NCBI GenBank assembly: GCA_001768325.1
Contig: MENQ01000004.1
Location: forward strand, 14,058 to 78,057
DNA from: Bacteroidetes bacterium GWC2_46_850
Lineage (GTDB): Bacteria > Bacteroidota > Bacteroidia > Bacteroidales > Dysgonomonadaceae
DNA: 64,000 nucleotides
Direction of reading: 5' to 3'
Positions 4,204 to 18,886 of this stretch are shown here, piece by piece. Position 1 is the stretch's first letter. The number at the start of each line of letters is the position of its first letter. The notes beneath the pieces are model-generated. The model made no database searches. It saw nothing but the letters and a program-made list of their open reading frames with translations, and was not told the DNA's origin. The translations under genes and the position numbers were made by a program.

Positions 4204-5438
4204 GCAACCTGATCATCCATAACGCGGCACAGGTAGTGACCTGCAGCGGCTTCGCCGGAAAGCGTGGAAAAGAGATGTCCGATCTGCAGGTCATAGAAAA
4301 TGGAACGGTGATCGTGACAGATGGTCTTATCTCGCACATGCTGAAACAGGATGAACCTATTCCGGTCAAGAAGCAGAATTACAGAATTATCGATGCTACA
4401 GGTAAGACACTTTTGCCGGGCTTTGTGGATCCCCATACCCATTTTGTCTTTGGCGGATACCGGGAGGTGGAGTTCTCCTGGCGGATGCGCGGCGACAGCT
4501 ATATGGAGATCATGCAAAGGGGTGGAGGGATTGTCAGCACAACAAAATCCACCCGTGATGCGACAGAAGAGGAGCTGATGGCATCGAGCAGGCAACGCCT
4601 TGATGCGATGCTCCGGCTGGGCATCACCACCGTGGAGGGAAAGAGTGGATACGGACTGGACAAGGAGACCGAGTTGAAGCAGCTGTGTGTCATGCGGCGA
4701 CTGAATGAAAGTCACCCGGTGGATATCGTTCCCACCTACATGGGAGCACATGCTCTCCCACCGGAGTGGAAGGGCAGGGAAGAGGCATTTATCGATTTCC
4801 AGATTGAAGAGATGTTTCCCCTGGTCGCACAACAAAAGCTGGCCGAAGCGGTGGATATCTTCTGCGAGGAAGGCGTGTTCACAATAGCGCAGTCGCGCCG
4901 CTACTTGCAGGCAGCCCGTGAACAGGGTTTTCAGCTTAAAATGCATGCCGATGAGATCGTGCCACTGGGCGGTGCCGAGCTGGCAGCAGAACTGCACTGT
5001 CTCTCGGCGGACCACCTCCTGCAGGCCTCCGACGAAGGAATTCGTGCCCTGGCAGCATCGGAGACGGTGGCTACGCTACTGCCGCTGACGGCCTTCTCCT
5101 TGCGGGAAGAGTATGCCCGCGCACGGGAGATGATCGACGCGGGATGCATCGTGGCGCTGGCTACCGACCTGAATCCGGGCAGCTCATTCACCGCTTCGGT
5201 ACCACTGCTCTTTGCCCTGGCATGCATCTATATGCAGATGTCGCCGGAGGAGGCAGTGACTGCAATGACCATCAACAGTGCCGCAGCGCTGGGTCGTGCC
5301 GACCGTATCGGGAGCATCGACATTGGCAAGCAGGGCGACCTGATCCTGCTGCAGTTCCCCTCCTACAAGTTTCTGCCCTACCACGTGGGGATGAATATTG
5401 TGGAATGTGTGATTAAAAAGGGGAAAATCGTCAGTTGA
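4200..5438 (+). CDS. hutI: imidazolonepropionase
   Basis: 412 aa amidohydrolase fold with the PGFVDPHTHFVFGG metal-binding motif, in hut context. Confidence 0.95.
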   Translation: MSNLIIHNAAQVVTCSGFAGKRGKEMSDLQVIENGTVIVTDGLISHMLKQDEPIPVKKQNYRIIDATGKTLLPGFVDPHTHFVFGGYREVEFSWRMRGDSYMEIMQRGGGIVSTTKSTRDATEEELMASSRQRLDAMLRLGITTVEGKSGYGLDKETELKQLCVMRRLNESHPVDIVPTYMGAHALPPEWKGREEAFIDFQIEEMFPLVAQQKLAEAVDIFCEEGVFTIAQSRRYLQAAREQGFQLKMHADEIVPLGGAELAAELHCLSADHLLQASDEGIRALAASETVATLLPLTAFSLREEYARAREMIDAGCIVALATDLNPGSSFTASVPLLFALACIYMQMSPEEAVTAMTINSAAALGRADRIGSIDIGKQGDLILLQFPSYKFLPYHVGMNIVECVIKKGKIVS

Positions 5439-5511
5439 TGTGATGATTGATTAATGTGCAGATTTACAGATAAAATGATTGATTTACTAATTTGGTACAG
5501 CTGACCGCTAT

Positions 5512-5567
5512 GTCCCAAACCGCTGAATGTATAATAATTGCTCCTAAAAAGCTGATCGCTGAACGCT
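5512..5567 (-). repeat. intergenic repeat family, copy E (diverged, inverted relative to flanking genes)
   Basis: The reverse complement reads AGCGTTCAGCGATCAGCTTTTTAGGAGCAATTATTATACATTCAGCGGTTTGGGAC. It shares TTCAG-GATCAGCTTT at the head with copy A, and 13/13 nt of CAGCGGTTTGGGA at the tail. Confidence 0.5.
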
Positions 5568-5580
5568 AAAAATTTAAATA

Positions 5581-6207
5581 ATGAAACTACAAGACCTGAC
5601 CCTCAAACAATTTCTTGAAAAGACCGCTGCAAACGAAGCGTTACCTGGCGGTGGCAGCAGTGCCGCACTGAGTGCCGCCCTTGCTACGGCACTCACCGAG
5701 ATGGTGGCCGGCCTGACCATCGGAAAGAAAAAATATGTTGCCGTAGAAGAGCGAATGAAACAGATAGCCGCTGAGATGTCCGCCAACAGGGTTCATCTGG
5801 TGAACGACATTGACCGTGACGCGGATGCATACCGGTTGGTGATGGACGCGTACCGGATGCCGAAAGAAACGGAAGCAGAGATCGCCTTGCGCGAAGAAAA
5901 GATTGAGGAAGCCACAAAAATCGCTTCCCTGGTACCGATGGAAGTGGCGGAACGGACATACAGTCTGCTCGATACCATGAGTGAAGTACTGGAGACCGGA
6001 AACCGGAACGCGGTGACCGACGGCCTGGTCGGCCTGATGATCTGCCGCACCGCCATCATGGGGGCACTGCTCAATGTGCGTACCAACCTGGGAGGCATCC
6101 GCGACAAGGCGTTTGTTGTTGAAATGAGTGCAAAATGCGACACAATGGAAAAGGATACACTTGAAAAGGAGAGGCACGCAATACAATGGGTGAAGACAAT
6201 TCTTTGA
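5581..6207 (+). CDS. formimidoyltetrahydrofolate cyclodeaminase (FTCD C-terminal-type, stand-alone)
   Basis: 208 aa with the N-terminal ...FLEKTAANEALPGGGSSAALSAALATAL... motif typical of the cyclodeaminase/cyclohydrolase family. hut context. Confidence 0.85.
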   Translation: MKLQDLTLKQFLEKTAANEALPGGGSSAALSAALATALTEMVAGLTIGKKKYVAVEERMKQIAAEMSANRVHLVNDIDRDADAYRLVMDAYRMPKETEAEIALREEKIEEATKIASLVPMEVAERTYSLLDTMSEVLETGNRNAVTDGLVGLMICRTAIMGALLNVRTNLGGIRDKAFVVEMSAKCDTMEKDTLEKERHAIQWVKTIL

Positions 6208-6287
6208 ATGAAACAGATGCAATGCATGAAAAGGACGAAATAATCATTTTCACACTAGAGCATGATTAAATAAATAATTTTAATCGT

Positions 6288-7787
6288 ATGAAAAACATAT
6301 ACTATATCGGTCAGCGTGACCTGACCATCGATGATCTGGAGTGGATCATCAACGAGAACATCAGGGTGGAGTTGTCACCCGAAGCCAGGGAGCGGATTCA
6401 AAAGTGCCGCGACTACCTGGACCGGAAGATGGAAACACAGCAGGAACCTATCTACGGTATCACTACAGGCTTTGGATCGCTCTGCGAACGACCGGTCTCC
6501 ATTGAAGATCTGAGCACCTTGCAGGAGAACCTGGTGAAGTCACACGCCTGCAGCGTGGGTGAGGAGGTGGCGCCGCTCATCGTCAAGCTGATGTTCCTGC
6601 TCAAGGCCCATGCCCTCTCGCTGGGCTACAGCGGCGTGCAGGTGGCCACCGTACAGCGGATGCTCGACCTGTTCAACAACGACATCCTGCCTATCGTTTA
6701 CGACAAGGGGTCGCTGGGTGCCTCGGGCGACCTGGCACCGCTGGCCAATCTCTTCCTGCCGCTGATTGGGGTGGGGGACGTGTTTTACAAAGGCCAGAAA
6801 CGGGATATCGGCGACGTGCTGGATGAGTTTGGCTGGAAACCTATCCGGTTGAAAAGCAAGGAGGGGCTTGCCCTGCTCAACGGTACCCAGTTCATGTCGG
6901 CACATGGTGTCTTTGCCATCATGAAGGGCCAACGTCTCTCAAAGCGGGCCGACCTGATTGCGGCGCTTTCACTCGATGCCTACGACGGCCACCTGGAGCC
7001 ATTCGACGAACGGCTCCACCTGATCCGTCCCCACGCGGGACAGTTGGAGACAAGCCGGAATATCCGCAGTATCCTGGAAGGGAGCGAGCTGATATCCCGC
7101 AAGAAAGAGCATCTGCAGGATCCTTATTCCTTTCGTTGTGTGCCGCAGGTGCATGGCGCCACCAAAGATGCCATCGGCTATGTGCGGCAGGTGGTGGTAA
7201 CCGAGATCAACTCGGTGACCGACAACCCTACCATCTTTCCAGATGATGACGTGATCATCTCAGGGGGAAACTTCCACGGGCAGCCCCTGGCCATCGCCTT
7301 CGACTTCCTGGCTATCGCTCTGGCAGAGCTGGGTAATATCTCGGAACGACGCACGGCGCAGCTGATCCTCGGCAAGCGGGGTCTGCCGGAGTTTCTGGTG
7401 GCCAACCCCGGCCTCAACTCGGGCTTCATGATTCCACAGTATGTGGCAGCCTCGGTGGTGAGCCAGAACAAGATGTACTGCTACGCTGCCAGCAGCGACT
7501 CCATCGTCTCCTCCAACGGGCAGGAAGATCATGTGAGCATGGGCGCCACGTCGGCCATCAAGCTGATTAAGGTGATGGACAACCTCGATACCATTCTCTC
7601 CATTGAGCTGATGAACGGCGTGCAGGCACTCGAATTTCGTCGCCCCCTGCGCTCATCGCCCTTGATCGAAAAGGTGGTGAAAAAATATCGCAAAGAGGTT
7701 CCGTTTATCGATGAGGACATCGTCATGTATAAGGAGATCCGTAAAACGGTGGCATTTCTGAACAGACTGCATGCGGATGTAGACTGA
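6288..7787 (+). CDS. hutH: histidine ammonia-lyase
   Basis: 499 aa containing GSLGASGDLAPLA, which holds the Ala-Ser-Gly triad that forms the MIO cofactor. Confidence 0.95.
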   Translation: MKNIYYIGQRDLTIDDLEWIINENIRVELSPEARERIQKCRDYLDRKMETQQEPIYGITTGFGSLCERPVSIEDLSTLQENLVKSHACSVGEEVAPLIVKLMFLLKAHALSLGYSGVQVATVQRMLDLFNNDILPIVYDKGSLGASGDLAPLANLFLPLIGVGDVFYKGQKRDIGDVLDEFGWKPIRLKSKEGLALLNGTQFMSAHGVFAIMKGQRLSKRADLIAALSLDAYDGHLEPFDERLHLIRPHAGQLETSRNIRSILEGSELISRKKEHLQDPYSFRCVPQVHGATKDAIGYVRQVVVTEINSVTDNPTIFPDDDVIISGGNFHGQPLAIAFDFLAIALAELGNISERRTAQLILGKRGLPEFLVANPGLNSGFMIPQYVAASVVSQNKMYCYAASSDSIVSSNGQEDHVSMGATSAIKLIKVMDNLDTILSIELMNGVQALEFRRPLRSSPLIEKVVKKYRKEVPFIDEDIVMYKEIRKTVAFLNRLHADVD

Positions 7788-10096: not shown

Positions 10097-10753
10097 TTAT
10101 AACGGAATCAGGTATGCCGCGTAGATATGGCATGCCAATCCCAGCAGTACGAAGATATGAAAAATGGCATGGACAAACTCCCGCCTGGCTGTAGCATAGA
10201 TTACAGCACCGGCAATATAGAAAACTCCGCCTGCAATCAGCCAGATTACCGTATCCATGGTATCCTGTGCCCGAGCAACCCCAATCAATGGCTTAAAGGC
10301 GATCAGCACAATCAGTCCCATCAGAACATATGAGGAAGTCTTCAGATGGCTGTTTCGCTTCAGTGGGCGGAAGCTGATGATGATTCCGACGAGTGCGATG
10401 AACCAGACCAGCATAAAAATAAACCACCCCCAGAAAGGAATATCGCGTAACAGGATGAGCGTGAAGGGAGAATAGCTGGCTGCAATGAGCAGGTAGATGC
10501 TTGCGTGGTCGAAATGGCGTAGCTTTGACTTAAGCATTGGCTCCTGCACATAATGATAGACTGTGGATGAGCTCATGCATGCGATCATCCCGAAACCAAA
10601 AAGAGCATACCCCAGCAGGGCAGTGTCGTTGTCCGTCGCCAACGCACGGCTTAGCAGCAGCACCGTCGCTGCTACGCTCATCAGCGCGCCAAAACCGTGA
10701 GTCAGGTAGTTGATGCGCTCCTCACGCGATGTATAGAATTTATTTTTTGACAT
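10097..10753 (-). CDS. hemolysin III / PAQR-family membrane protein
   Basis: 218 aa with 7 transmembrane segments, an N-terminal SREERINYLTHGFG motif and C-terminal HxxxH-like histidines (HAIFHIFV). Its start codon overlaps the stop of the upstream anti-sigma gene (TAATG). Confidence 0.85.
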   Translation of the reverse strand: MSKNKFYTSREERINYLTHGFGALMSVAATVLLLSRALATDNDTALLGYALFGFGMIACMSSSTVYHYVQEPMLKSKLRHFDHASIYLLIAASYSPFTLILLRDIPFWGWFIFMLVWFIALVGIIISFRPLKRNSHLKTSSYVLMGLIVLIAFKPLIGVARAQDTMDTVIWLIAGGVFYIAGAVIYATARREFVHAIFHIFVLLGLACHIYAAYLIPL

Positions 10754-11919
10754 TACAATTCAATTTTCAACGTTACTTTCCGGTTTCCTTCCGACCATGG
10801 CGGCGAACCGAGTAGCAACCTTTTGATTTCAGTCTCCATTGCAGGACAGGAGTTCTCTTTAATTTGCACATTTAGCGGATGTCCATCGCTGTCAATGAAA
10901 AACGTTACAATAAATGATACAGGTTGTTCTTTGCAGATTTTTTCATCATAATTTTCCCTGAAATAACCGATAAATTCTTCTTTGTCGAAAACAGCTCGGT
11001 TTGTATTTGTTGTCGTGGAATCAACATTTTCGTGGGAACCTGTTTTCTCAGTAGAACCTATTCCTGTAACGGAACCCACTACGCTGCTCTTTTTCTGAGT
11101 TCCGAAACCCACAACAATCACTTCATTCAGTGCCATATCATCGGATTTCAGTGTAATATCACCCATATTTTCCTTCACCGGAATTTCCTGCGGTTTCATT
11201 CCAATAAATGAAGCCAACAGCGTAGAATCTGCATTGGCAGGGATATTTAAGTTGAATTTACCGTCCATATCAGACACTGTACCCAGATTGCTGTTCCTCA
11301 ATTGAATAGTGGCTCCGATAATCGGTTCACCTGTCTCGTCCACCACACGTCCGCTCGCCAGCAATGCCATGTCTGTCTCCTTCAAACCTTCGGGAATCGA
11401 TTTCTCTGTCACATTCTGCGATACTGCTGCCATCTGTACTTTCTCGTTCACGATGATCTGCATGACCGTATCGTCCGAAACGATCCTTTCTTTCCTGGCG
11501 GCCGACGGAAGAACAACGGGAGGCTGTTGTACGGGATTCTTCTCCACGACACCCGGATCTTTTGGTGCGGCAGTAGGAGTAACCTCTTTCACCTGTGGAT
11601 TATTTCCGGTTGTTGCAACCACAATTTCCTCTTTCGCTCCGGGGGAAAGCAGCAAAAGGGGAATCCCGACAAGAAGTATCAACACCGCTGCGGCACCCCA
11701 TATCCAGAGAGATTTGTGAATCCGTTTTTGGTTTGGCTGAACACTTTTTTCCAGCTTTTCAATGACAGAAGAGTGATCACCCTCCACCGAATCATAACCA
11801 TCGATGGCGTCACGCAGGAAAGGATCGTCCATCGTCTGACGTTCCAGTCGGTTGGCTTTCTTTCCGTGTCTTTGTCCCTGTATATACTCTTTCAAGCTTT
11901 CCTCTTCTGTCCTGTTCAT
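10753..11919 (-). CDS. putative ECF anti-sigma factor: cytoplasmic N-domain, 1 TM, SusC-type N-terminal-extension-like domain, TonB-box-like strand, TonB-C-like domain
   Basis: 388 aa. Its ATG overlaps the sigma factor stop (ATGA). It has an N-terminal DDPFLRDAIDGY motif and one transmembrane segment (LWIWGAAAVLILLVGIPLLLL). Residues ~188-262 (GRVVDETGEPIIGATIQLRNSNLGTVSDMDGKF...) resemble the carboxypeptidase-regulatory-like domain. NEVIVVGFGTQKK follows. The C-terminal ~75 aa (FIGYF...VSFIVTFFIDSDGHPLNVQI...PPWSEG...) show a TonB C-terminal-like pattern. Confidence 0.6.
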   Translation of the reverse strand: MNRTEEESLKEYIQGQRHGKKANRLERQTMDDPFLRDAIDGYDSVEGDHSSVIEKLEKSVQPNQKRIHKSLWIWGAAAVLILLVGIPLLLLSPGAKEEIVVATTGNNPQVKEVTPTAAPKDPGVVEKNPVQQPPVVLPSAARKERIVSDDTVMQIIVNEKVQMAAVSQNVTEKSIPEGLKETDMALLASGRVVDETGEPIIGATIQLRNSNLGTVSDMDGKFNLNIPANADSTLLASFIGMKPQEIPVKENMGDITLKSDDMALNEVIVVGFGTQKKSSVVGSVTGIGSTEKTGSHENVDSTTTNTNRAVFDKEEFIGYFRENYDEKICKEQPVSFIVTFFIDSDGHPLNVQIKENSCPAMETEIKRLLLGSPPWSEGNRKVTLKIEL

Positions 11920-12533
11920 TGCTTCGGTGCATATACGTGATGTAATTCGTCCCGGTCAGGTAGAGTTTTCAATATCCGGCTGACACAATTTTTCAAATTC
12001 CTTTTCCCGTTCTGAATGTAACTTTTTACTTTTGCAAGTGTGAACCCCGTCAAAGAAACAATGTCAGCGTATGATTTATCCTGATAGTAAAAATACTCGA
12101 TACTTTTCCGTTGTTCCACACTCAGCTCATTCATACAAACGATCAATGCCGATGCCTCTTCTTCGTTAGATTGACCGCTATCCAATAGAGTAAAAAAACT
12201 GCCGTTTTCCATAATATCCTCTCCACATAAAACAAAGAAAGTCTTGTTTTCTTTTTTTATACGCTGCAGGCAATGGTTTTTGGCAACGGTATAGAGCCAT
12301 GTATGAAAATTTTGTATCTCGTATTGTTTTATCTTTTGCGAAACTTCTTCGAACAAATCCATTACTGCATCTTCTGCATCAGCCCTGTTGGCAAGGTATT
12401 TCAGACACAATCCGTATACCATTGGAATATAGCGCCGGTATAACTCGCCGAAGAAGACCATCTGTTTTTCCTTTTTACAAAGTTCAAACAATGCGTTATC
12501 CGATAATTTTGATATGTCGGGTTTGTTAATCAA
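11916..12533 (-). CDS. RNA polymerase ECF-type sigma-70 factor
   Basis: 205 aa with region 2 (FGELYRRYIPMVYGLCLKYL...DAEDAVMDLF...HTWLYTVAKN) and region 4 (LSVEQRKSIEYFYYQDKSYADIVSLTGFTLAKVKSYIQNGKRNLK). The most upstream start is a TTG, so the exact start is uncertain. Confidence 0.85.
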   Translation of the reverse strand: MINKPDISKLSDNALFELCKKEKQMVFFGELYRRYIPMVYGLCLKYLANRADAEDAVMDLFEEVSQKIKQYEIQNFHTWLYTVAKNHCLQRIKKENKTFFVLCGEDIMENGSFFTLLDSGQSNEEEASALIVCMNELSVEQRKSIEYFYYQDKSYADIVSLTGFTLAKVKSYIQNGKRNLKNCVSRILKTLPDRDELHHVYAPKQ

Positions 12534-12656
12534 TCTGTTGCGCGAATATACTGGTAATCTCGTCTTACAAAATTAAAAAATTATTCGTTTGCTTATGGAA
12601 TTTGGGTTGTTTTTGTATCTATCATACAAAACATCATAATATAAAAAATAAATCGT

Positions 12657-14501
12657 ATGAAAACAACAATGCAAAGAGTCAGTCTATTTTTGATTACGAT
12701 GCTGCTGACAGTATCCGTTTATGGACAGCAGATTGAAGTGAGCGGAAAGGTATTTAATGAAGAGAAGCAGCCGATCATCGGTGCGACCATCATGAATAAA
12801 GTTACCCGCGACGGAACAGTCAGCGATATAGACGGAAAATTTCGTATCAAAACGAAGATTGGAGATACACTGGTCTTTATGTTTATCGGATATATGGCCC
12901 GTGAAATCGAAGTGAACAAAGCACAGCTTGATGTCTATATGAAGCCCGACCTTCGGTTGATGGAGGAGGTCACAGTGGTGGCCTTTGGAAATCAGAAACG
13001 GGCAAATGTCGTGGGTGCCGCCACTCAACGGGTAATCACAGTAAATGATTGGTCACACAGGCTGCCAATGCAACCTCAAAATTCAGAGGAGTACGAACCA
13101 TTCAGAGAAAATCGTTTTTTTTCAGTAAATAAAAATCCATTGTCCACCTTTTCGCTGGATGTGGATGCGGCGTCTTACGGTAACATTCGCCGGATGATTA
13201 ACCAGGGACAAATGCCAGAAAAAGATGCTGTGCGGGTGGAGGAGATGATCAATTATTTTAACTACGATTATCCACAGCCGAAGGATGGTCAACCGGTAAG
13301 TATCGTAGCCGAAACCGCCGGATGCCCCTGGAACCGGAATACACAGCTGGTACGCATTGGCATAAAGACAAAGGAGATCCCTTCGGAAATGCTTCCGGCA
13401 GGAAATTTTGTTTTCCTGATTGATGTGTCCGGGTCAATGATGGATGCCAATAAGCTCCCTTTGGTTAAAGCATCTATGAAGCTCCTGGTGAACAACCTGC
13501 GACCGAAAGACCGTGTGGCAATCGTCACCTATGCCGGTGCAGCGGGTGAAGTATTGCCTTCGACAAGCGGCGCCGACAAGCAAAAGATAACGGAAGCGCT
13601 GGATAATCTCCAGGCCGGAGGTACCACTGCGGGTGGTGCCGGCATCCAGCTGGCCTATAAAATAGCTGAAAAGAACCTGGTGAAAGGAGGCAATAACCGG
13701 GTGATTCTTTGTACTGATGGCGATTTTAATGTGGGTGTTTCCTCAACCGAAGGACTCGAGTCGTTGATTGAGCAAAAGCGTCAGTCGGGCATTTACTTGA
13801 CTGTGCTGGGTTATGGAATGGGAAATTACAAGGACAACAAACTACAGACGCTCGCACAAAAGGGCAATGGGAATCATGCCTATATCGATAACCTGCAGGA
13901 AGCCAATAAAGTGTTGGTTAACGAGTTTGGCAGTACGATGGCTGTCGTGGCCAAGGATGTAAAGCTCCAGGTGGAGTTCAATCCAATTTTTGTGAATGCC
14001 TACCGTTTGATTGGCTATGAATCGCGATTGCTGGAAGATGAAGATTTCAACGACGACACCAAGGATGCTGGTGAGCTTGGACCCGGACATACCGTTACGG
14101 CGCTTTATGAAATTGTTCCAGTGGGAGTTGATATTCCTGTTGGAAAAGTGGATCCATTGAAATATCAGCAACAGAAAACCGAACGTTTACCGTCCAAATT
14201 CAGCAATACCAAAGAGTTGTTAACCGTGAAGCTGCGCTATAAAAAGCCAGGTGAAGACATAAGCAGGAAGCTCGAGGTGCCCGTGCCTGCTTCGAAAACG
14301 AATCGGATGGCATCACCTGACTTCAATTTTGTGATGGCTGTCGCCATGTTCGGGCAGTTGCTGCGTGATTCAGATTATAAAGGAGACGGCACTTACAAGG
14401 ATGTGGTCGAGCTGGCCCTTAAGGGACTGGATAACGATCCCCATGGTTACCGACGCGAATTTATCCGTTTGGTGGAAGCGGTTCAACAACTGGAGATGTG
14501 A
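12657..14501 (+). CDS. secreted von Willebrand factor type A protein (YfbK-like) with SusC-type N-terminal module
   Basis: 614 aa with a signal peptide (LLTVSVYG/QQ). Residues ~26-120 form a CarboxypepD_reg-like domain followed by EEVTVVAFGNQKR. Next comes the vWA N-terminal region (PLSTFSLDVDAASYGN). The MIDAS motif is present (FLIDVSGSM ... GGTTAGGAG ... CTDGDFNVG). The C-terminus is DUF3520-like. Confidence 0.85.
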   Translation: MKTTMQRVSLFLITMLLTVSVYGQQIEVSGKVFNEEKQPIIGATIMNKVTRDGTVSDIDGKFRIKTKIGDTLVFMFIGYMAREIEVNKAQLDVYMKPDLRLMEEVTVVAFGNQKRANVVGAATQRVITVNDWSHRLPMQPQNSEEYEPFRENRFFSVNKNPLSTFSLDVDAASYGNIRRMINQGQMPEKDAVRVEEMINYFNYDYPQPKDGQPVSIVAETAGCPWNRNTQLVRIGIKTKEIPSEMLPAGNFVFLIDVSGSMMDANKLPLVKASMKLLVNNLRPKDRVAIVTYAGAAGEVLPSTSGADKQKITEALDNLQAGGTTAGGAGIQLAYKIAEKNLVKGGNNRVILCTDGDFNVGVSSTEGLESLIEQKRQSGIYLTVLGYGMGNYKDNKLQTLAQKGNGNHAYIDNLQEANKVLVNEFGSTMAVVAKDVKLQVEFNPIFVNAYRLIGYESRLLEDEDFNDDTKDAGELGPGHTVTALYEIVPVGVDIPVGKVDPLKYQQQKTERLPSKFSNTKELLTVKLRYKKPGEDISRKLEVPVPASKTNRMASPDFNFVMAVAMFGQLLRDSDYKGDGTYKDVVELALKGLDNDPHGYRREFIRLVEAVQQLEM

Positions 14502-14555
14502 TCGTTCAATTCCCGTAATAAATGTTTTAGCAGATAAATATTAAAACAGATTGAC

Positions 14556-16043
14556 ATGAGAGGTGATGTAATGTGGTACAGGATTATACTGGTCAAGCTT
14601 TTGTTACTGACAGTCCTGCATATTACCGGCATAAAAGCACAGCAAACAGAGCACAGGGTGACAGGTACGGTGATGGACCAGTCGGGTGAGACGTTTCCGG
14701 GTACGACGGTTATTGTGAAAGGAACTGTACAGGGGACCGTGACTGATATGGATGGAAGGTACGTTATTGCCGTACCAAAAGATGCTATTCTTCAATTTTC
14801 TTTCGTTGGCATGGAGAACCGGGAAATTGCAGTTGAGGGCCGCCAGAGGATCGACGTGGTGATGGAAGACAACATTTCAGAAGGAATAATGCCTGCGAAA
14901 CCGATCCTGTTGACTCCGAAGCAGCGCGAGAAGGCAGAGGCCGACAACAGGTTTTCGTTTAACGTTTTCTTGGAAATCTCAAGGTTGCAAGGACCCAATG
15001 CATTTTTTTCTCCTATAAGTCTTAATATGGCTCTCGGGACTCTCTACAACGGTTCTTCGGGTGATACCCGTACAGAAATGAACCAGATTTGGGGTATCAC
15101 TAACTTTTCAGAATCCGAACTTAACGACTATTATCGAACCATAAACCGGAGATTATTGGAAGCAGATCGGTTCACGGATATTGCTATCGCCAATTCCATC
15201 TGGTATCGTAGTGATTTTTCAATCAAAGAAGCGTTTAAAGAAACCAGTAAGAGATATTTTGATACGGATATAAAAGCGCTCGATTTCAATGATTCCAATG
15301 CGGCCAATGTTATCAACAAATGGTGCCTTGATAAAACAAATGGCAAGATCAATCATATTGCTGCCACTCCGATGCCAGGAGATATGATGATGTATCTGGC
15401 AAATGCCATCTATTTCAAGAGTAAATGGCAGATGGAGAAAAGGTTCAGGAAAGAGCAAACAAAACCGGACGATTTTATTCAGTCCGACGGCAAAACATTG
15501 AGGGTGGAGATGATGGAACAAACCACCTCCCTGCCTTATTATAGCGACTCATATCTTCAATGTGTTGAATTACCATATGGGAACGGAGCGTACAGCATGA
15601 TGGCAGTTCTTCCACCCGACAATGAAAATATCAGTCAACTGATTGAATACCTGAGTAGTGCTCATTGGGAGCGTATTGTCAATCAGATGAAGAGTGAACG
15701 AGTATGGTTGAAATTACCCCGTTTAAGGATAGAATGCAATATACCTTTCAATCAGCCATTGAAAAATGTGGGGATGCAAAAAATTTTCAGCGGAGGTTTC
15801 GCACATCTTTCAGATGATGCTTTCAATGTCTCCAATATTAGACAGAAAGCATTTATAGAAGTGAATGAAGAGGGTACAGAGGTTGCCGCTGTTACATCCA
15901 TGATGATAGTGGGTTACGGAGTTATGAAGACATCGAATGAACCCGTCCACTTTTTTGCCAATCGCCCGTTTATGCTGCTGATCAGGGAGAAAAGTACAGG
16001 GGTAATACTCTTTATTGGCAGAATTGATGATCCCCGCAGTTAA
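14556..16043 (+). CDS. secreted serpin with N-terminal CarboxypepD_reg-like domain
   Basis: 495 aa with a signal peptide (ITGIKA/QQ). Residues ~34-104 read VTGTVMDQSGETFPGTTVIVKGTVQGTVTDMDGRY... The serpin core carries the canonical hinge and reactive-centre loop, FIEVNEEGTEVAAVTS...PVHFFANRPFMLLIRE. Confidence 0.85.
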   Translation: MRGDVMWYRIILVKLLLLTVLHITGIKAQQTEHRVTGTVMDQSGETFPGTTVIVKGTVQGTVTDMDGRYVIAVPKDAILQFSFVGMENREIAVEGRQRIDVVMEDNISEGIMPAKPILLTPKQREKAEADNRFSFNVFLEISRLQGPNAFFSPISLNMALGTLYNGSSGDTRTEMNQIWGITNFSESELNDYYRTINRRLLEADRFTDIAIANSIWYRSDFSIKEAFKETSKRYFDTDIKALDFNDSNAANVINKWCLDKTNGKINHIAATPMPGDMMMYLANAIYFKSKWQMEKRFRKEQTKPDDFIQSDGKTLRVEMMEQTTSLPYYSDSYLQCVELPYGNGAYSMMAVLPPDNENISQLIEYLSSAHWERIVNQMKSERVWLKLPRLRIECNIPFNQPLKNVGMQKIFSGGFAHLSDDAFNVSNIRQKAFIEVNEEGTEVAAVTSMMIVGYGVMKTSNEPVHFFANRPFMLLIREKSTGVILFIGRIDDPRS

Positions 16044-16297
16044 ATTATATATTTAAAAGTTGTATCGACTTACCCGTGGTGCATGCACTCATTGATGGGA
16101 GAACTGTCAAAACGTCAGCGTGGGTGGTTTGGCAAAGATTTTGACGATATCCTGGTGTAAATCTGCGATTCATGGATGGTTGAGTAAGAAAGAACAGAGG
16201 AGCACTAACTTTATGGCTTGTTTCTTTGTTCATGTGAAAAGATCATTGATGGAATGAATTCAGATTCCAATTATAAAGATATTAAAAAAGGAAAAAT

Positions 16298-18886
16298 ATG
16301 AATTTCAATAACTTTACCATCAAGGCGCAGGAAGCGGTACAGAAGGCCATTGAGATTGCGCAGGGAAATAAGCAGCAGATGATTGAGCCGGCTCACCTGT
16401 TGAAAGGGGTGATGCAGGTGGGCGAGAACGTGACCAGCTTCCTGTTTCAGAAGCTGGGTGTAAATGCATCGAATCTGGAAAAGGTGGTCGACGGCGAAAT
16501 CGAATCCTATCCACGTGTGTCGGGCGGTGAACCTATGCTGAGCAGGGAGACCAATGCCGTTTTCCAAAAAGCAACGGATCTTACCGGTAAGATGGGCGAT
16601 CAGTTTGTCTCCATCGAACATCTGCTGTTGGCCCTGGTGCAGGAGAACAACAATGCTTCCCGCATGATGCGCGATGCCGGTATCACACCGGCTGAGCTGC
16701 AAAAGGCCATCGATGAACTGCGAAAAGGGGAGAAGGTGACCAGTCAGACGGCGGAAGATACCTACCAGGCACTGGGCAAGTACGCTGTAAATCTGATTGA
16801 GCGTGCCCGCAGCGGCAAACTGGATCCGGTCATCGGTCGCGACGAGGAGATACGCCGCGTATTGCAGATACTGAGCCGGCGCACGAAAAACAACCCGATC
16901 CTGATCGGAGAACCGGGAACCGGTAAGACCGCCATCGCCGAAGGACTGGCACACCGCATCGTGCGGGGTGACGTGCCGGAGAACCTGCGCAGCAAACAGC
17001 TTTTTTCACTCGACATGGGTGCGCTGATTGCCGGAGCCAAATACAAAGGTGAATTTGAGGAACGACTGAAATCGGTGGTCAACGAAGTGGTAAAGGCGGA
17101 GGGAGAGATCATCCTCTTCATCGACGAGATTCATACGCTGGTGGGCGCCGGCAAGAGCGAGGGTGCAATGGATGCTGCCAACATCCTGAAACCAGCCCTG
17201 GCAAGGGGTGAACTGCGTGCCATCGGGGCGACCACACTCGATGAATACCAGAAGTATTTTGAAAAGGATAAAGCGCTGGAAAGACGATTTCAGATGGTGA
17301 TGGTGGAGGAACCCAATGAGTCGGACAGCATCTCCATCCTGCGTGGACTGAAAGAACGGTACGAGAATCACCACAAGGTGCGCATCATGGATGAGGCGAT
17401 CATCGCGGCGGTGCAGCTGTCGCATCGATACATCACTGATCGGTTTCTGCCCGATAAGGCCATCGACCTGATGGATGAGGCTGCTGCCAAGTTGCGTATG
17501 GAGGTAGACTCTGTTCCGGAGGAGCTGGATGAGATCATGCGGCGCGTGAAGCAGCTTGAGATTGAGCGGGAGGCCATAAAACGTGAGAATGACCAGCCGA
17601 AAGTGGAGCTGCTGACCCGTCAGATTGAGGACCTGAAAGCGGAGGAGGCCGACTACAAGGCAAAGTGGCAATCGGAGAAGGAGTTGATCAACCAGATTCA
17701 GCAAAATAAAATAGAGATAGAGGACGCGAAGTTCGAAGCGGACCGGGCCGAACGGGAGGGCGACTACGGAAAGGTGGCCGAACTACGTTACGGCAGGATC
17801 AAAGAGATGGAGAACACGATTGAGGCGCTGCAGAAGGAGTTGCATGTGCGTCAGGGTACCCGCGCCATGATCAAGGAGGAGGTGGATGCTGAGGATATTG
17901 CCGATGTGGTGTCACGCTGGACTGGTATTCCTGTGAGCAAGATGCTCCAGAGCGAGCGGCAGAAGTTGCTTCATCTGGAGGAGGAACTGCACAAGCGCGT
18001 AGTCGGACAGGATGAGGCCATCACGGCAGTCTCCGACGCGGTGAGGCGCAACCGGGCGGGATTGAGTGACCCGAAGCGGCCGATTGGTTCTTTTATCTTT
18101 CTGGGTACCACGGGTGTCGGAAAGACCGAACTGGCCAAAGCCCTTGCGGAGTACCTGTTTGATGATGAAAATATGATGACCCGCATCGACATGAGCGAGT
18201 ATCAGGAAAAGTTCAGTGCCACCCGACTGATTGGCGCCCCTCCGGGATATGTGGGGTACGATGAGGGAGGTCAGCTTACAGAGGCAATACGGCGCAAACC
18301 CTATTCGGTGGTACTGTTCGACGAGATTGAAAAAGCACATCCCGATGTGTTCAACATCCTGCTGCAGGTGCTGGACGACGGAAGGCTGACCGATAACAAG
18401 GGAAGGGTGGTGAACTTCAAGAATACAATCATCATCATGACCTCAAACCTGGGATCGAACATGATTCGGGAGAACTTTGAAAAAATTACACCCACGAACA
18501 GGGAAGAAATCATTGAGAAAACGAAGAACCTGGTGATGGATATGTTGAAAAAGACGATCCGCCCTGAGTTTCTGAACCGGATAGACGACATCATCATGTT
18601 TTCTCCGCTGAAAGAATCGGAGATTGAACAGATCGTCCGCATACAACTTGAGGGTGTACGGAAGATGCTGGCTGAAAACGGCATCGAACTGCAATTTACG
18701 GAAGAAGCATTGAAGAGCATTTCGGTGGCAGGTTTTGATCCCGAGTTTGGGGCTCGTCCCGTGAAGCGGGTTATTCAGAATAAGGTGCTGAACCAGTTGT
18801 CGAAAGATCTGCTCGGAGGTACGCTCGATAAAACAAGACCGATCTCCATCGATGCGATCGACGACACCATCTTCTTTCGCAACTGA
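16298..18886 (+). CDS. clpB: ATP-dependent chaperone ClpB
   Basis: 862 aa with two AAA+ modules ([15 protein letters not shown] and [15 protein letters not shown]), a long coiled-coil middle domain and a Clp N-domain. Confidence 0.97.

Follow-up and report, generated by a model that had tools for sequence, protein, structure and literature searches.

A conserved ECF sigma/anti-sigma/vWA module of Bacteroidota with SusC-type N-terminal extensions, joined by a serpin in a few Proteiniphilum-like genomes

Introduction

The 64-kb stretch of DNA analyzed here (the window) encodes an anti-sigma factor, a vWA protein, and a serpin that all carry the N-terminal extension (NTE) of SusC-type transporters, which raises the question of why three proteins with otherwise different domains share this module and whether they belong to one system. 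In the ORF list, the anti-sigma factor gene (10753-11919, minus strand, 388 aa) has its start overlapped by 4 nt by the stop of the ECF sigma factor gene (11916-12533, minus strand), and the genes of the vWA protein (12657-14501, plus strand, 614 aa) and the serpin (14556-16043, plus strand, 495 aa) are divergent from this pair. The four ORFs are as a preliminary description of the locus gave them, with every peptide quoted there found in the translations, and the three named proteins are the only NTE-bearing ORFs of the window.

Results

The preliminary description had taken a shared module of ~75 aa for the SusC NTE, and this identification stands because PF13715 (CarbopepD_reg_2) matches above its gathering score in the anti-sigma factor (5e-19), the vWA protein (9e-16), and the serpin (4e-14), and all three align with N-terminal positions of TIGR04056 (SusC/RagA, 981 positions), the anti-sigma factor covering positions 1-112, the vWA protein 1-100, and the serpin 2-74 only. 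The anti-sigma and vWA modules are identical at 44 of 97 positions, and the serpin module has only the beta-sandwich in common with the other two (24/61 and 25/73). A TonB-box strand follows the module in the anti-sigma factor and the vWA protein and is absent from the serpin, which belongs to the 58 of 59 NTE-serpins without the box. TonB-box regions in the former two proteins are predicted to be flexible, like the SusC NTE, for which flexibility has been reported by NMR (PMC7782687). TonB7 and TonB11 carry an NTE as well (PMC10350073), and the module was also seen on a BamP-like protein (NF053692 match; 9n2d_E in Foldseek) and on T9SS cargo (L071/L072).

The anti-sigma factor, as seen in an AF2 model and two family alignments (A1 and A2), consists of a cytoplasmic helical domain, one TM helix, a disordered linker, the NTE, a TonB box, and a TonB_C-like domain; related loci number >531 in species-representative genomes. 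The presumed sigma-binding domain is a four-helix N-terminal domain (residues 1-60; 11740..11919, minus strand) with helices at residues 3-13, 20-30, 33-44, and 49-60 (pLDDT 64-75), a conserved motif (LE..AMDDPFL.DAIDGY), and invariant or near-invariant E26, D32, F34, L35, and G41. This domain has no match to any Pfam anti-sigma model, so its assignment draws on context and topology, and weak DUF4179 matches occur in only 3 of 85 family members. It is followed by the single TM helix (WIWGAAAVLILLVGIPLLLL, residues 70-89; 11653..11712, minus strand; AF2 helix), which has no His/SHLS motif, and by the Ig-like NTE (residues 185-269; 11113..11367, minus strand; pLDDT >90), whose AF2 model fits the crystal NTE of SusCdex 9hfj with a TM of 0.85 and an rmsd of 1.2 Å (Foldseek). 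Residues 186-291 align with residues 32-136 of B. theta SusC 8aa4_A (E 5e-20), and this alignment extends over the TonB box into the start of the plug, pairing the TonB-box-like strand and first plug-like residues of the anti-sigma factor (LNEVIVVGFGTQKK, residues 264-277; 11089..11130, minus strand) with the VVVVGYGTMKK region of SusC. L264, E266, V267, V269, and G273 vary little or not at all in the family alignments, the motif is retained in 57 of 71 family members, and AF2 predicts the box to be disordered and not docked in cis onto the protein's own C-terminal domain.

The C-terminal domain (residues 308-388; 10756..10998, minus strand) had been suspected of being TonB_C-like and is a divergent domain of this type, with an alpha-beta-beta-alpha-beta topology in the AF2 model (pLDDT >92). 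Its profile (A3) gave 19 PDB matches with E <= 10, of which 14 (best E 0.002) belong to C-terminal domains of TonB, and PF03544 (TonB_C) is matched by 10 of 85 family members (best 1.6e-6), with no Pfam TonB_C match in the window's own protein; on these profile matches, the homology to TonB_C is remote. The profile was found in 77 of 78 anti-sigma factors, C329 and C358 are near-invariant, and the YP motif is lost in the window's protein and its clade. By architecture, the counterpart of the anti-sigma factor in B. theta is BT4460, which is catalogued as the TonB homologue TonB11 and adjoins the sigma factor BT4461 (PMC10350073, PMC10434189).

The domains outside the module agree with the preliminary description. 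The ECF sigma factor (205 aa from the earliest start, a TTG, or 181 aa from the first ATG at 12461) matches Sigma70_r2 (1e-15), Sigma70_r4_2 (8e-10), and NCBIfam TIGR02937 sigma70-ECF (1e-20), and no r3 domain was found in the Pfam search. The vWA protein is of the periplasmic YfbK type and contains a signal peptide (cleavage near the junction of VYG and QQ), the NTE, a TonB box, and vWF_A (1e-41), VWA (6e-22), and YfbK_C (formerly DUF3520; 2e-70) domains, an architecture found in all of its best 120 homologues, and the MIDAS motif (DVSGS) of its VWA domain is intact. The vWA NTE (residues 28-107) and TonB-box-like strand (LMEEVTVVAFGNQKR, residues 101-115) lie at 12738..13001 on the plus strand, as placed by PF13715 and TIGR04056; the NTE matches SusC 8aa4_A (E 7e-18), and the box is retained in 45 of 49 NTE-bearing vWA orthologues. 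Residues 100-151 have a pLDDT <35 in the AF2 model, which suggests that the TonB box lies in a flexible, exposed linker. The likeness to inter-alpha-trypsin inhibitor proposed earlier reflects generic VWA similarity only (ITIH4, E 4e-7). In ECF289, the anti-sigma factors themselves bear vWA and DUF3520 domains (PMC7826278).

An ECF-type promoter-like motif (12590..12623, plus strand, in vWA sense) precedes the vWA gene and is made up of TGGAAT (12596-12601) and, 36 nt from the ATG, GTATCTA (12615-12621). The consensus ahead of vWA is bipartite with fixed spacing (TTTATGGAAT-N13-GyATCTA), and the motif (PWM score 35.5) is the sole match scoring >=10 in the 64-kb window, both strands included, with a shuffled maximum of 13.4. 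The identical motif and spacing occur 5' of vWA in ~45 loci from several orders, in non-coding DNA and always in the vWA sense, and a scan of both strands of 1.5 Mb gave only 4 off-target matches scoring >=14. Chitinophagales loci have a variant motif (TTTATGTAAT...GCATC) with a PWM score that is weak or below threshold, and in one lineage (L040) a canonical TonB gene (PF03544 2e-21) and a second motif copy directly follow vWA. This conserved promoter ahead of vWA makes the earlier claim that the vWA operon is under the sigma factor a well-founded prediction of its regulon. The PWM scan found no such motif upstream of the sigma operon in the window, a departure from what is typical of autoregulated ECFs.

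Conservation was assessed in 80 loci, taken at species level and centered on the anti-sigma factor; they were chosen via its N-domain motif, independently of NTE or vWA, and, being related, are not phylogenetically independent. A homologous sigma factor lies immediately 5' of the anti-sigma factor in 78 of the 80, and, of the 66 loci with >=2.7 kb of upstream flank, 45 have a divergent vWA gene within 1 kb and another 3 have one within 2.5 kb. Both partners carry the NTE in 49 of 51 paired loci, and 4 of the 5 anti-sigma factors without an NTE have no adjacent vWA or an NTE-less one. The other 18 of the 66 loci, which mostly retain the NTE, box, and C-terminal domain, have no adjacent vWA, so vWA is not the sole partner unless it is encoded elsewhere. 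The sigma factor, anti-sigma factor, and divergent vWA protein are a conserved core that is widespread in Bacteroidota, occurring in Bacteroidales, Flavobacteriales, Sphingobacteriales, Cytophagales, and Chitinophagales, with hosts including Bacteroides, Paludibacter, Capnocytophaga, Pedobacter, Mucilaginibacter, Cyclobacteriaceae, Chitinophagaceae, and Saprospiraceae. The dedicated neighborhood proposed in the preliminary description thus extends for these three genes far beyond the genome, and the serpin is no general member of it.

The serpin is miropin-like (5ncs, E 1e-79; Serpin PF00079 4e-98) and has a type-I signal peptide and the NTE (residues 35-103) where the lipobox would be; its nearest relatives have a lipoprotein anchor at the place of the NTE. 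Its hinge and reactive-center loop (EEGTEVAAVTSMMIVGYGVMKTSNEP, residues 438-463; 15867..15944, plus strand), located by the miropin alignment, is of the inhibitory type, with Gly at P15, Thr at P14, and small P12-P9 residues, and the serpin family shows no variation at E438, G440, and E442. P1 is ambiguous, canonical counting giving Tyr454 and the miropin alignment Lys458-Thr459. The gene follows vWA after 54 nt, and neither a terminator-like site in this gap nor, in the PWM scan of the window, a separate ECF-type motif for the serpin was found. Only the window's own genome among the 80 loci has the serpin, and a vWA gene precedes the NTE-serpin in just one of 22 metagenomic loci, that of the closest relative (78% identity). 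NTE-serpins with 49-52% identity were found in unrelated contexts. Serpins behind vWA are confined to a single syntenic type of Proteiniphilum-like locus, where 1 to 3 NTE-serpins occupy this position in a Proteiniphilum acetatigenes assembly (L081) and in related contigs from genomes and metagenomes (L084-L086); in L081, a PDZ/S41 peptidase gene, which is split, lies beside the serpin. The serpin is a local add-on of a few Proteiniphilum-like genomes, and the NTE-serpin family is mostly found elsewhere.

Discussion

These observations would fit a three-component ECF module, to which we give an even chance of being correct, in which the sigma factor drives vWA and, at this locus, the serpin, and the TonB-like domain of the anti-sigma factor reads the exposed TonB-box handle of the vWA protein. 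The sigma factor would be co-transcribed with, and bound by, a single-pass anti-sigma factor whose TonB-like periplasmic part combines a long disordered spacer and C-terminal domain with a SusC-type NTE and TonB-box handle. From the conserved ECF-type promoter, the sigma factor would transcribe the divergent target, a soluble periplasmic YfbK-type protein that has its own NTE and TonB-box handle on a linker predicted to be flexible. The TonB-like domain may then capture the vWA TonB-box strand by pairing of beta-strands, in the way TonB binds transporters, with the anti-sigma factor's own box competing in cis; a signal of how much vWA sensor is present, or in what state, would thereby cross the inner membrane and set the sigma factor free. 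Direct fusion of vWA-YfbK_C to the anti-sigma factor in other phyla argues that both proteins work as one sensor. In the Proteiniphilum-like lineage, 1-3 NTE-serpin genes would have been inserted behind vWA and are probably co-expressed as lineage-specific cargo for periplasmic protease inhibition.

The handles might instead be grasped by a canonical ExbBD-energized TonB in FecA/FecR-type signaling, where a pull on the anti-sigma factor would expose it to proteolysis and its TonB-like domain would do another job, such as binding a transporter's TonB box or competing with TonB. SusC TonB boxes are of proven TonB dependence (PMC7782687, PMC10350073), the anti-sigma and vWA handles resemble genuine SusC handles as much as one another, and the TonB gene of L040 behind vWA comes with the same promoter motif; we nevertheless consider this rather unlikely, as it leaves the nearly universal TonB_C-like domain unexplained, ExbB/ExbD and TonB genes are not conserved neighbors in the module loci, and L040 is a single lineage. 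It is far less probable still that the 388-aa protein is no anti-sigma factor and functions as a TonB paralogue ("TonB11"), energizing some transporter, with the sigma factor only regulating its expression. The TonB_C-like C-terminus, the long spacer, and the listing of the B. theta protein of the same architecture as a TonB homologue (PMC10350073) would suit such a role, but a conserved 60-residue cytoplasmic helical domain stands where TonB has a short N-terminus, the TM helix and the loss of the YP motif in the clade are unlike TonB, the start overlaps the stop of an almost invariably adjacent sigma gene, ExbBD genes were not found nearby, and no polysaccharide phenotype was reported for TonB11 (PMC10350073).

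For the serpin, a lineage-specific feedback role can be envisaged, in which sigma-driven expression would shut the signal off, the NTE-docked serpin inhibiting the site-1 serine protease of the anti-sigma factor or shielding vWA from proteolysis. Its place close behind vWA with neither terminator nor promoter motif of its own, the recurrence of 1-3 copies there, the inhibitory hinge and miropin-like loop, and the adjoining peptidase gene of L081 are in keeping with this idea, which we still regard as quite improbable, since the arrangement, limited to one syntenic locus type, has to be counted as one evolutionary event, almost all other genomes with the module are without the serpin, most NTE-serpins are elsewhere, and the S41 gene of L081 is split. 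Inhibition of S41 Ser-Lys proteases by serpins is also not known. Somewhat less improbable, though again on the unlikely side, is that there is no dedicated complex, the NTE being a generic Bacteroidota periplasmic module involved in sorting or stability or in docking to a shared envelope partner, vWA a mere regulon member, and the three NTEs never in touch. The occurrence of the NTE on SusC transporters, TonB7/TonB11 (PMC10350073), the BamP-like protein, T9SS cargo, and scattered serpins agrees with this, and its taking the place of a lipoprotein anchor in serpins indicates a role in localization. Against it stand the NTE that both proteins carry in almost every paired locus, the weak association of NTE loss, and the TonB-box strand that soluble vWA proteins keep despite having no barrel to open, and the ECF289 vWA-anti-sigma fusions argue for physical coupling (PMC7826278).

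Organization of the locus

The ECF sigma factor ORF (positions 11916–12533, minus strand) is followed by the anti-sigma factor gene (10753–11919, minus strand), which encodes a single-pass membrane protein of 388 aa and shares 4 nt at its start with the end of the sigma ORF. The vWA gene (12657–14501, plus strand; 614 aa) is divergent from the sigma gene, and the serpin gene (14556–16043, plus strand; 495 aa) begins 54 nt past it. The closest relatives of the window proteins come from Proteiniphilum and Petrimonas. The sigma factor matches PF04542 (1e-15) and PF08281 (8e-10), that is, regions 2 and 4, with no region 3 or region 1 match in Pfam, and scores 73.8 bits on TIGR02937 against a cut-off of 42.9; with regions 2 and 4 only, in ∼200 aa, it is an ECF (group 4) sigma factor. 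The vWA protein matches vWF_A (PF12450, 1e-41), VWA (6e-22), and YfbK_C (PF12034, 2e-70) in Pfam and has an intact MIDAS motif, DVSGS at residues 256–260, which is invariant in the family, so that it belongs to the YfbK type.

[quoted passage not shown] In their combination, a TonB-like anti-sigma factor with its own TonB box, a soluble vWA protein bearing a handle (NTE plus TonB-box strand), and a conserved ECF promoter occur together phylum-wide. In the literature searched (YfbK, BT4460–62, and related), neither this combination nor a function for the module is described.

SusC-type handles on proteins without a barrel

PF13715, the NTE family, is matched above threshold in the anti-sigma factor, the vWA protein, and the serpin, and the 64-kb window holds no further NTE-bearing ORF. 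The three proteins match only the first ∼74–112 of the 981 positions of the NCBIfam SusC/RagA model (TIGR04056), with scores of 80–124 bits that are far under the family cut-off of 368, and none of them has a Pfam match to PF07715 or PF00593, the plug and 22-strand barrel. Residues 186–291 of the anti-sigma factor align with residues 32–136 of Bacteroides thetaiotaomicron SusC (8aa4_A; E 5e-20), and vWA residues 7–124 align with the same structure (E 7e-18), both alignments reaching beyond the TonB box into the first residues of the plug. Similarly, superposition of the anti-sigma NTE, as modeled by AlphaFold2 (AF2), on the crystal structure of the SusCdex NTE (9hfj) gives a TM-score of 0.85 and an rmsd of 1.2 Å. 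The handles of the anti-sigma factor and the vWA protein are identical at 44 of 97 positions; the serpin has the β-sandwich alone in common with them (∼35–39% identity) and carries an NTE with no TonB box. The proposal in the preliminary description that the three extracytoplasmic proteins share one SusC-type module is borne out by these matches, alignments, and superposition, and the families expected there were recovered for PF13715, VWA, YfbK_C (DUF3520), and PF00079, but not for TonB_C, which has no Pfam match on the window anti-sigma factor. The AF2 models predict flexible, exposed TonB-box segments in the anti-sigma factor and the vWA protein, and neither model shows cis-docking of the box on a neighboring domain; both regions are predicted to be disordered, and therefore ligand-gated sequestration of the box finds no support.

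A probable TonB-like anti-sigma factor

The AF2 model of the anti-sigma factor, built from 85 homologues, consists of four cytoplasmic helices (residues 3–60; pLDDT 64–75), a transmembrane (TM) helix (70–89), a disordered spacer (98–182), the NTE (185–256; pLDDT >90), a disordered TonB-box segment (269–307), and a compact α-β-β-α-β domain (313–387; pLDDT >92). ECF anti-sigma factors hold their sigma factor through an N-terminal cytoplasmic domain. The 4-nt overlap, a sigma gene directly upstream in 78 of the 80 fetched loci, and an N-in single-pass topology make the 388-aa protein a probable anti-sigma factor by context and topology, with putative sigma binding; Pfam anti-sigma models (zf-HC2/RskA-type) have no match on the N-terminal domain of the window protein, and a weak DUF4179 match occurs in 3 of the 85 members.

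The C-terminal domain is, as judged from profiles and the model, probably a divergent TonB C-terminal domain with a putative capacity to pair with TonB boxes. PF03544 (TonB_C) matches 10 of the 85 aligned relatives (best 1.6e-6), and in the window protein the YP motif is replaced. When a profile of the C-terminal domain alone (A3) was compared with the PDB, TonB C-terminal domains made up 14 of the 19 matches with E ≤ 10, at a best E of only 0.002. This restricted profile was needed because the whole-protein profile returned NTE matches, with TonB at E 1.7; in a Foldseek search with the full model, the NTE likewise dominates and TonB is absent from the top 50. Two cysteines of the TonB_C-like domain, C329 and C358 (10843–10935, minus strand), are near-invariant (at least 90% across the 85 homologues) and could be linked by a disulfide in the periplasm or act as a redox-sensitive site; no such feature is known of canonical TonB domains.

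Conservation across Bacteroidota

A locus scan of species-representative genomes, anchored on a motif in the anti-sigma cytoplasmic domain and hence independent of the NTE and the vWA protein, yielded >531 related loci, and 80 of these were retrieved for comparison. The hosts include Bacteroidales, Flavobacteriales (Capnocytophaga), Sphingobacteriales (Pedobacter and Mucilaginibacter), Cytophagales, Chitinophagales, and Saprospiraceae. A YfbK-type vWA gene is divergent within 1 kb in 45 of the 66 loci whose upstream flank reaches 2.7 kb, lies within 2.5 kb in three more, and is absent in 18. Both the anti-sigma factor and the vWA protein bear an NTE in 49 of 51 pairs, a TonB-box-like strand is kept in 57 of 71 anti-sigma factors and, on the vWA side, in 45 of 49 orthologues, and 77 of 78 anti-sigma factors have the TonB_C-like domain. 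In the fetched loci, the neighborhood includes no conserved transporter and no conserved gene downstream of vWA, where neighbors vary. Conservation of the gene neighborhood, which the preliminary description had put forward as a check for all four genes, therefore holds for sigma, anti-sigma, and vWA but not for the serpin, present among the 80 anti-sigma-anchored loci in the window's own genome only. The orthologous Bacteroides loci in the comparison set are L022, L026, and L033; in the first of these (Bacteroides finegoldii JCM 13345, 5204–6973, minus strand), vWA is broken into three ORFs, with extra genes between it and sigma, and is a probable pseudogene beside an intact sigma and anti-sigma pair.

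A conserved, putative ECF-type promoter

ECF promoters have a GGAAT −35 element with a short C/T-rich −10 element. K-mer enrichment in 47 sigma–vWA intergenic regions yielded one bipartite motif of this form with fixed spacing, cgTTTATGGAATtt-N10-tG[C/T]ATCTa, always in the vWA sense; its median distance to the vWA start is ∼70 nt. On a matrix built from 32 sites, the window site (12590–12623) scores 35.5 and is the sole match of at least 10 on either strand of the 64 kb; the maximum in shuffled sequence is 13.4, and outside two recurrent positions, only four off-target matches of at least 14 occur in 1.5 Mb of fetched loci scanned on both strands. The motif extends from Dysgonomonadaceae as far as Pedobacter and Cyclobacteriaceae, in which the flanking DNA is not alignable, and some Chitinophagales loci have a low-scoring variant, TTTATGTAAT...GCATC, with others giving no match above threshold. 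The conserved ECF-type motif before vWA gives computational support to the earlier suggestion that the vWA operon is the regulon of this sigma factor.

In the window, no ECF-type motif is found upstream of the sigma operon, as autoregulation would have it, or directly before the serpin, and a scan of 10500–16400 for sigma-70 consensus promoters and terminators, which does not cover Bacteroidota promoters, gave nothing above shuffle. The sequence TAATTTTG at 12568–12575 (minus strand), ∼35 nt ahead of the earliest start of the sigma ORF, fits TAnnTTTG, the Bacteroides housekeeping −7 box consensus. The sigma/anti-sigma operon may be constitutive and not autoregulated, the short −7 match being possibly due to chance in AT-rich DNA. 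In 19 loci (L021–L026, L028, L031–L034, L037, L048, L053, L055, L059, L066, L067, and L070; at ∼9745, plus strand), a second matrix match scoring 14–29 lies on the sense strand inside the sigma gene, ∼250 nt before the anti-sigma start, where a conserved linker peptide of the sigma factor, V/I-M-E-S-D-x-F-L-H-L-L (also given as V/I-M-E-S-x-x-F-L-H-L), is encoded. This match may mark a sigma-dependent promoter within the sigma gene that serves the anti-sigma gene or, since the conserved peptide is encoded there, be a by-product of coding; the window sigma factor has IMENGSFFTLL at the linker position and gives no match there.

Relation to known systems

The SusC/RagA transporters (BT1763, PDB 6YTC; SusCdex NTE, PDB 9HFJ) have the Ig-like NTE fold and sequence family in common with the window proteins, and a D/E-E-V-V-V-G-Y/F-G-T-Q-K-K strand follows the NTE on a flexible linker in both. 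Here, however, plug and barrel are missing, and the handle is found on a soluble vWA protein and an inner-membrane anti-sigma factor, with the NTE alone on the serpin. Deletion of the NTE abolishes growth on levan in B. thetaiotaomicron (PMC7782687). In FecI/FecR/FecA systems, including the SusC-STN/FecR-like pairs of Bacteroides PULs, an ECF sigma factor and a single-pass anti-sigma factor are also paired, and the periplasmic part of the latter contacts an N-terminal signaling handle beside the TonB box, with TonB-type β-strand pairing implicated, as is proposed for the present module. In contrast to these systems, the handle here is an NTE and not an STN domain, the TonB-like domain is on the anti-sigma factor itself, and no FecR or STN domain is matched in any of the four proteins in Pfam. 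In ECF289-type anti-sigma factors, the vWA domain and DUF3520/YfbK_C are fused in the anti-sigma factor (Casas-Pastor et al., 2021; PMC7826278), which couples an ECF sigma factor to a YfbK-type vWA sensor as here, whereas the window vWA protein is separate, secreted, and encoded on the opposite strand, both proteins bear the NTE and TonB box, and the anti-sigma factor also has TonB_C. The module therefore resembles both cell-surface signaling and ECF289 yet is neither, since FecR, STN, and barrel are absent and vWA is not fused to the anti-sigma factor, and it connects vWA–anti-sigma sensors of the split (Bacteroidota) kind with those of the fused (ECF289) kind.

B. thetaiotaomicron BT4460 (TonB11; 449 aa), with PF13715 at residues 228–309 and TonB_C at 379–440, was presented as a candidate TonB near a regulator, with neither a vWA partner nor a promoter described, and BT3192 (TonB7) is a TonB homologue with PF13715 in the same species (Pollet et al., 2023; PMC10350073). 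The adjoining BT4461 is a sigma-70 family factor, and BT4460–BT4462 have values of −2.8 to −3.1 in an iron-dependent stimulon table (PMC10434189). The architecture and sigma neighbor of BT4460 match those of the window anti-sigma factor, with orthology inferred from architecture, and TonB homologues of the BT4460/TonB11 type are thereby reclassified as probable anti-sigma factors; unlike the window, the B. thetaiotaomicron locus has an acyltransferase (BT4462) and not a vWA gene. Dma, a Bacteroidota-specific ECF anti-sigma factor, likewise has a long tether, disordered and periplasmic, that leads to an unusual envelope domain at the C-terminus, but there the domain is an outer-membrane β-barrel, whereas that of the window protein is a small TonB_C-like domain.

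A possible transporter-free circuit and its rivals

β-Strand pairing is the mode in which the C-terminal domain of TonB engages TonB boxes. In the circuit proposed here as the most likely one, the split Bacteroidota version would rejoin sensor (vWA) and anti-sigma factor non-covalently, with the TonB-like domain capturing the vWA TonB box, the NTE domains contributing to the pairing, and the anti-sigma factor's own box acting as a cis-competitor. A change in the vWA protein (MIDAS ligand, abundance, or cleavage) would then release the sigma factor, which in turn would raise vWA, plus the serpin in the window lineage. That the handle is portable in this way, and that the box of a soluble vWA sensor is read by an anti-sigma factor derived from TonB, whose own box competes in cis, so as to free sigma, is a doubtful proposition that we put forward tentatively. 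If true, it would provide a minimal, genetically tractable model for NTE binding in hundreds of SusC transporters and the first TonB-box recognition in signaling without an outer-membrane barrel. The vWA/anti-sigma pair also offers a simple two-protein system for what the SusC NTE handle binds, with a concrete promoter and regulon predicted.

The handles may instead serve a canonical energized TonB, which is favored by a Bacteroidales MAG (L040, 6577–7336, minus strand) where a second ECF-type motif (25.1) just past vWA precedes a 229-aa canonical TonB (PF03544, 2e-21), so that a real TonB may join the sigma regulon there; ExbBD is not seen as a conserved neighbor in the fetched loci. That the 388-aa protein is itself a true TonB is unlikely because its N-terminus is a conserved cytoplasmic domain of ∼60–68 residues, as against the short one of TonB, and its TM sequence, WIWGAAAVLILLVGIPLLLL, has no His (SHLS) motif of the kind through which the TonB N-terminus couples to ExbB/ExbD. 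The NTE may also be a generic localization module with no dedicated complex. Five anti-sigma factors are without an NTE, three having no adjacent vWA, one an NTE-less vWA, and one a normal vWA, which is suggestive of linked NTE loss on the two proteins in few independent events.

The serpin and other NTE-bearing proteins

The serpin (PF00079, 4e-98) has miropin of Tannerella forsythia (PDB 5NCS) as the closest solved structure to its core (E 1e-79), and the reactive-loop region is similar, with a loop two residues longer in the window protein. Its hinge EEGTEVAAVT, aligned to EEGTEAAAVT of miropin, is of the inhibitory type (P15 Gly, P14 Thr/Ser, and small P12–P9), and inhibition is predicted. 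The NTE-serpin family comprises at least 59 clusters (47–83% identity), 58 of the 59 lacking a TonB box, and no functional description of them is found in the literature searched. They have type-I signal peptides, and the NTE stands where the lipoprotein anchor sits in their nearest non-NTE relatives (..NYAC|NKED..). In those relatives (P0179–P0201, loci L112–L170, mostly from one JGI metagenome series), the acidic residues that come after the Cys (C-N-K-E-D...) resemble the Bacteroidota surface-export signal.

Serpin genes behind vWA occur as one copy in a Proteiniphilum acetatigenes assembly (L081), as one 78% identical to the window serpin on a metagenomic contig (L092), and as three tandem NTE-serpins of 534, 499, and 513 aa with gaps of ∼20 nt in a Proteiniphilum-related lineage (L084, 8376–13062; L085, 8001–12687), the triple reflecting local multiplication of the serpin cargo. 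These cases represent one locus type because the flanking genes are shared. NTE-serpins at 49–52% identity lie in unrelated contexts, vWA is absent in 21 of 22 metagenomic NTE-serpin loci, and in close relatives (L005, L017, and L036), ClpB comes next after vWA or is set off from it by one or two unrelated genes, and a serpin is lacking. Since most NTE-serpins are found elsewhere and the relatives are serpin-free, the serpin has been inserted between vWA and clpB in this lineage specifically, as a passenger that belongs to a family of its own, the NTE-tagged periplasmic serpins of miropin-like type, and its standing as a general member of the module is accordingly downgraded. It is probably co-transcribed with vWA in the window, as judged from the 54-nt gap and the lack of a terminator-like site or a motif of its own. 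In L081, a PDZ ORF (330 aa) and an S41 peptidase fragment (126 aa), convergent to the serpin (11594–12974, minus strand), look like one split tail-specific protease gene, with no counterpart between serpin and clpB in the window.

NTE-like domains also appear in other proteins. Residues 1–107 of the vWA protein (12657–12977) weakly match NCBIfam BamP (NF053692, 5e-6), and the anti-sigma model aligns structurally to chain E of the Flavobacterium johnsoniae BAM complex (PDB 9n2d), so that BamP, a BAM accessory protein, seems to share an NTE-like N-terminal domain; B. thetaiotaomicron TonB7 (249 aa, NTE plus TonB_C) is similar to BamP in size. In two Chitinophagaceae loci (L071, 5998–7095, minus strand; L072, 11879–12955, plus strand), a ∼360-aa protein encoded directly after vWA combines an NTE-like domain in its interior with a C-terminal T9SS sorting domain (Por_Secre_tail), and the NTE fold is therefore also present on secreted T9SS cargo.
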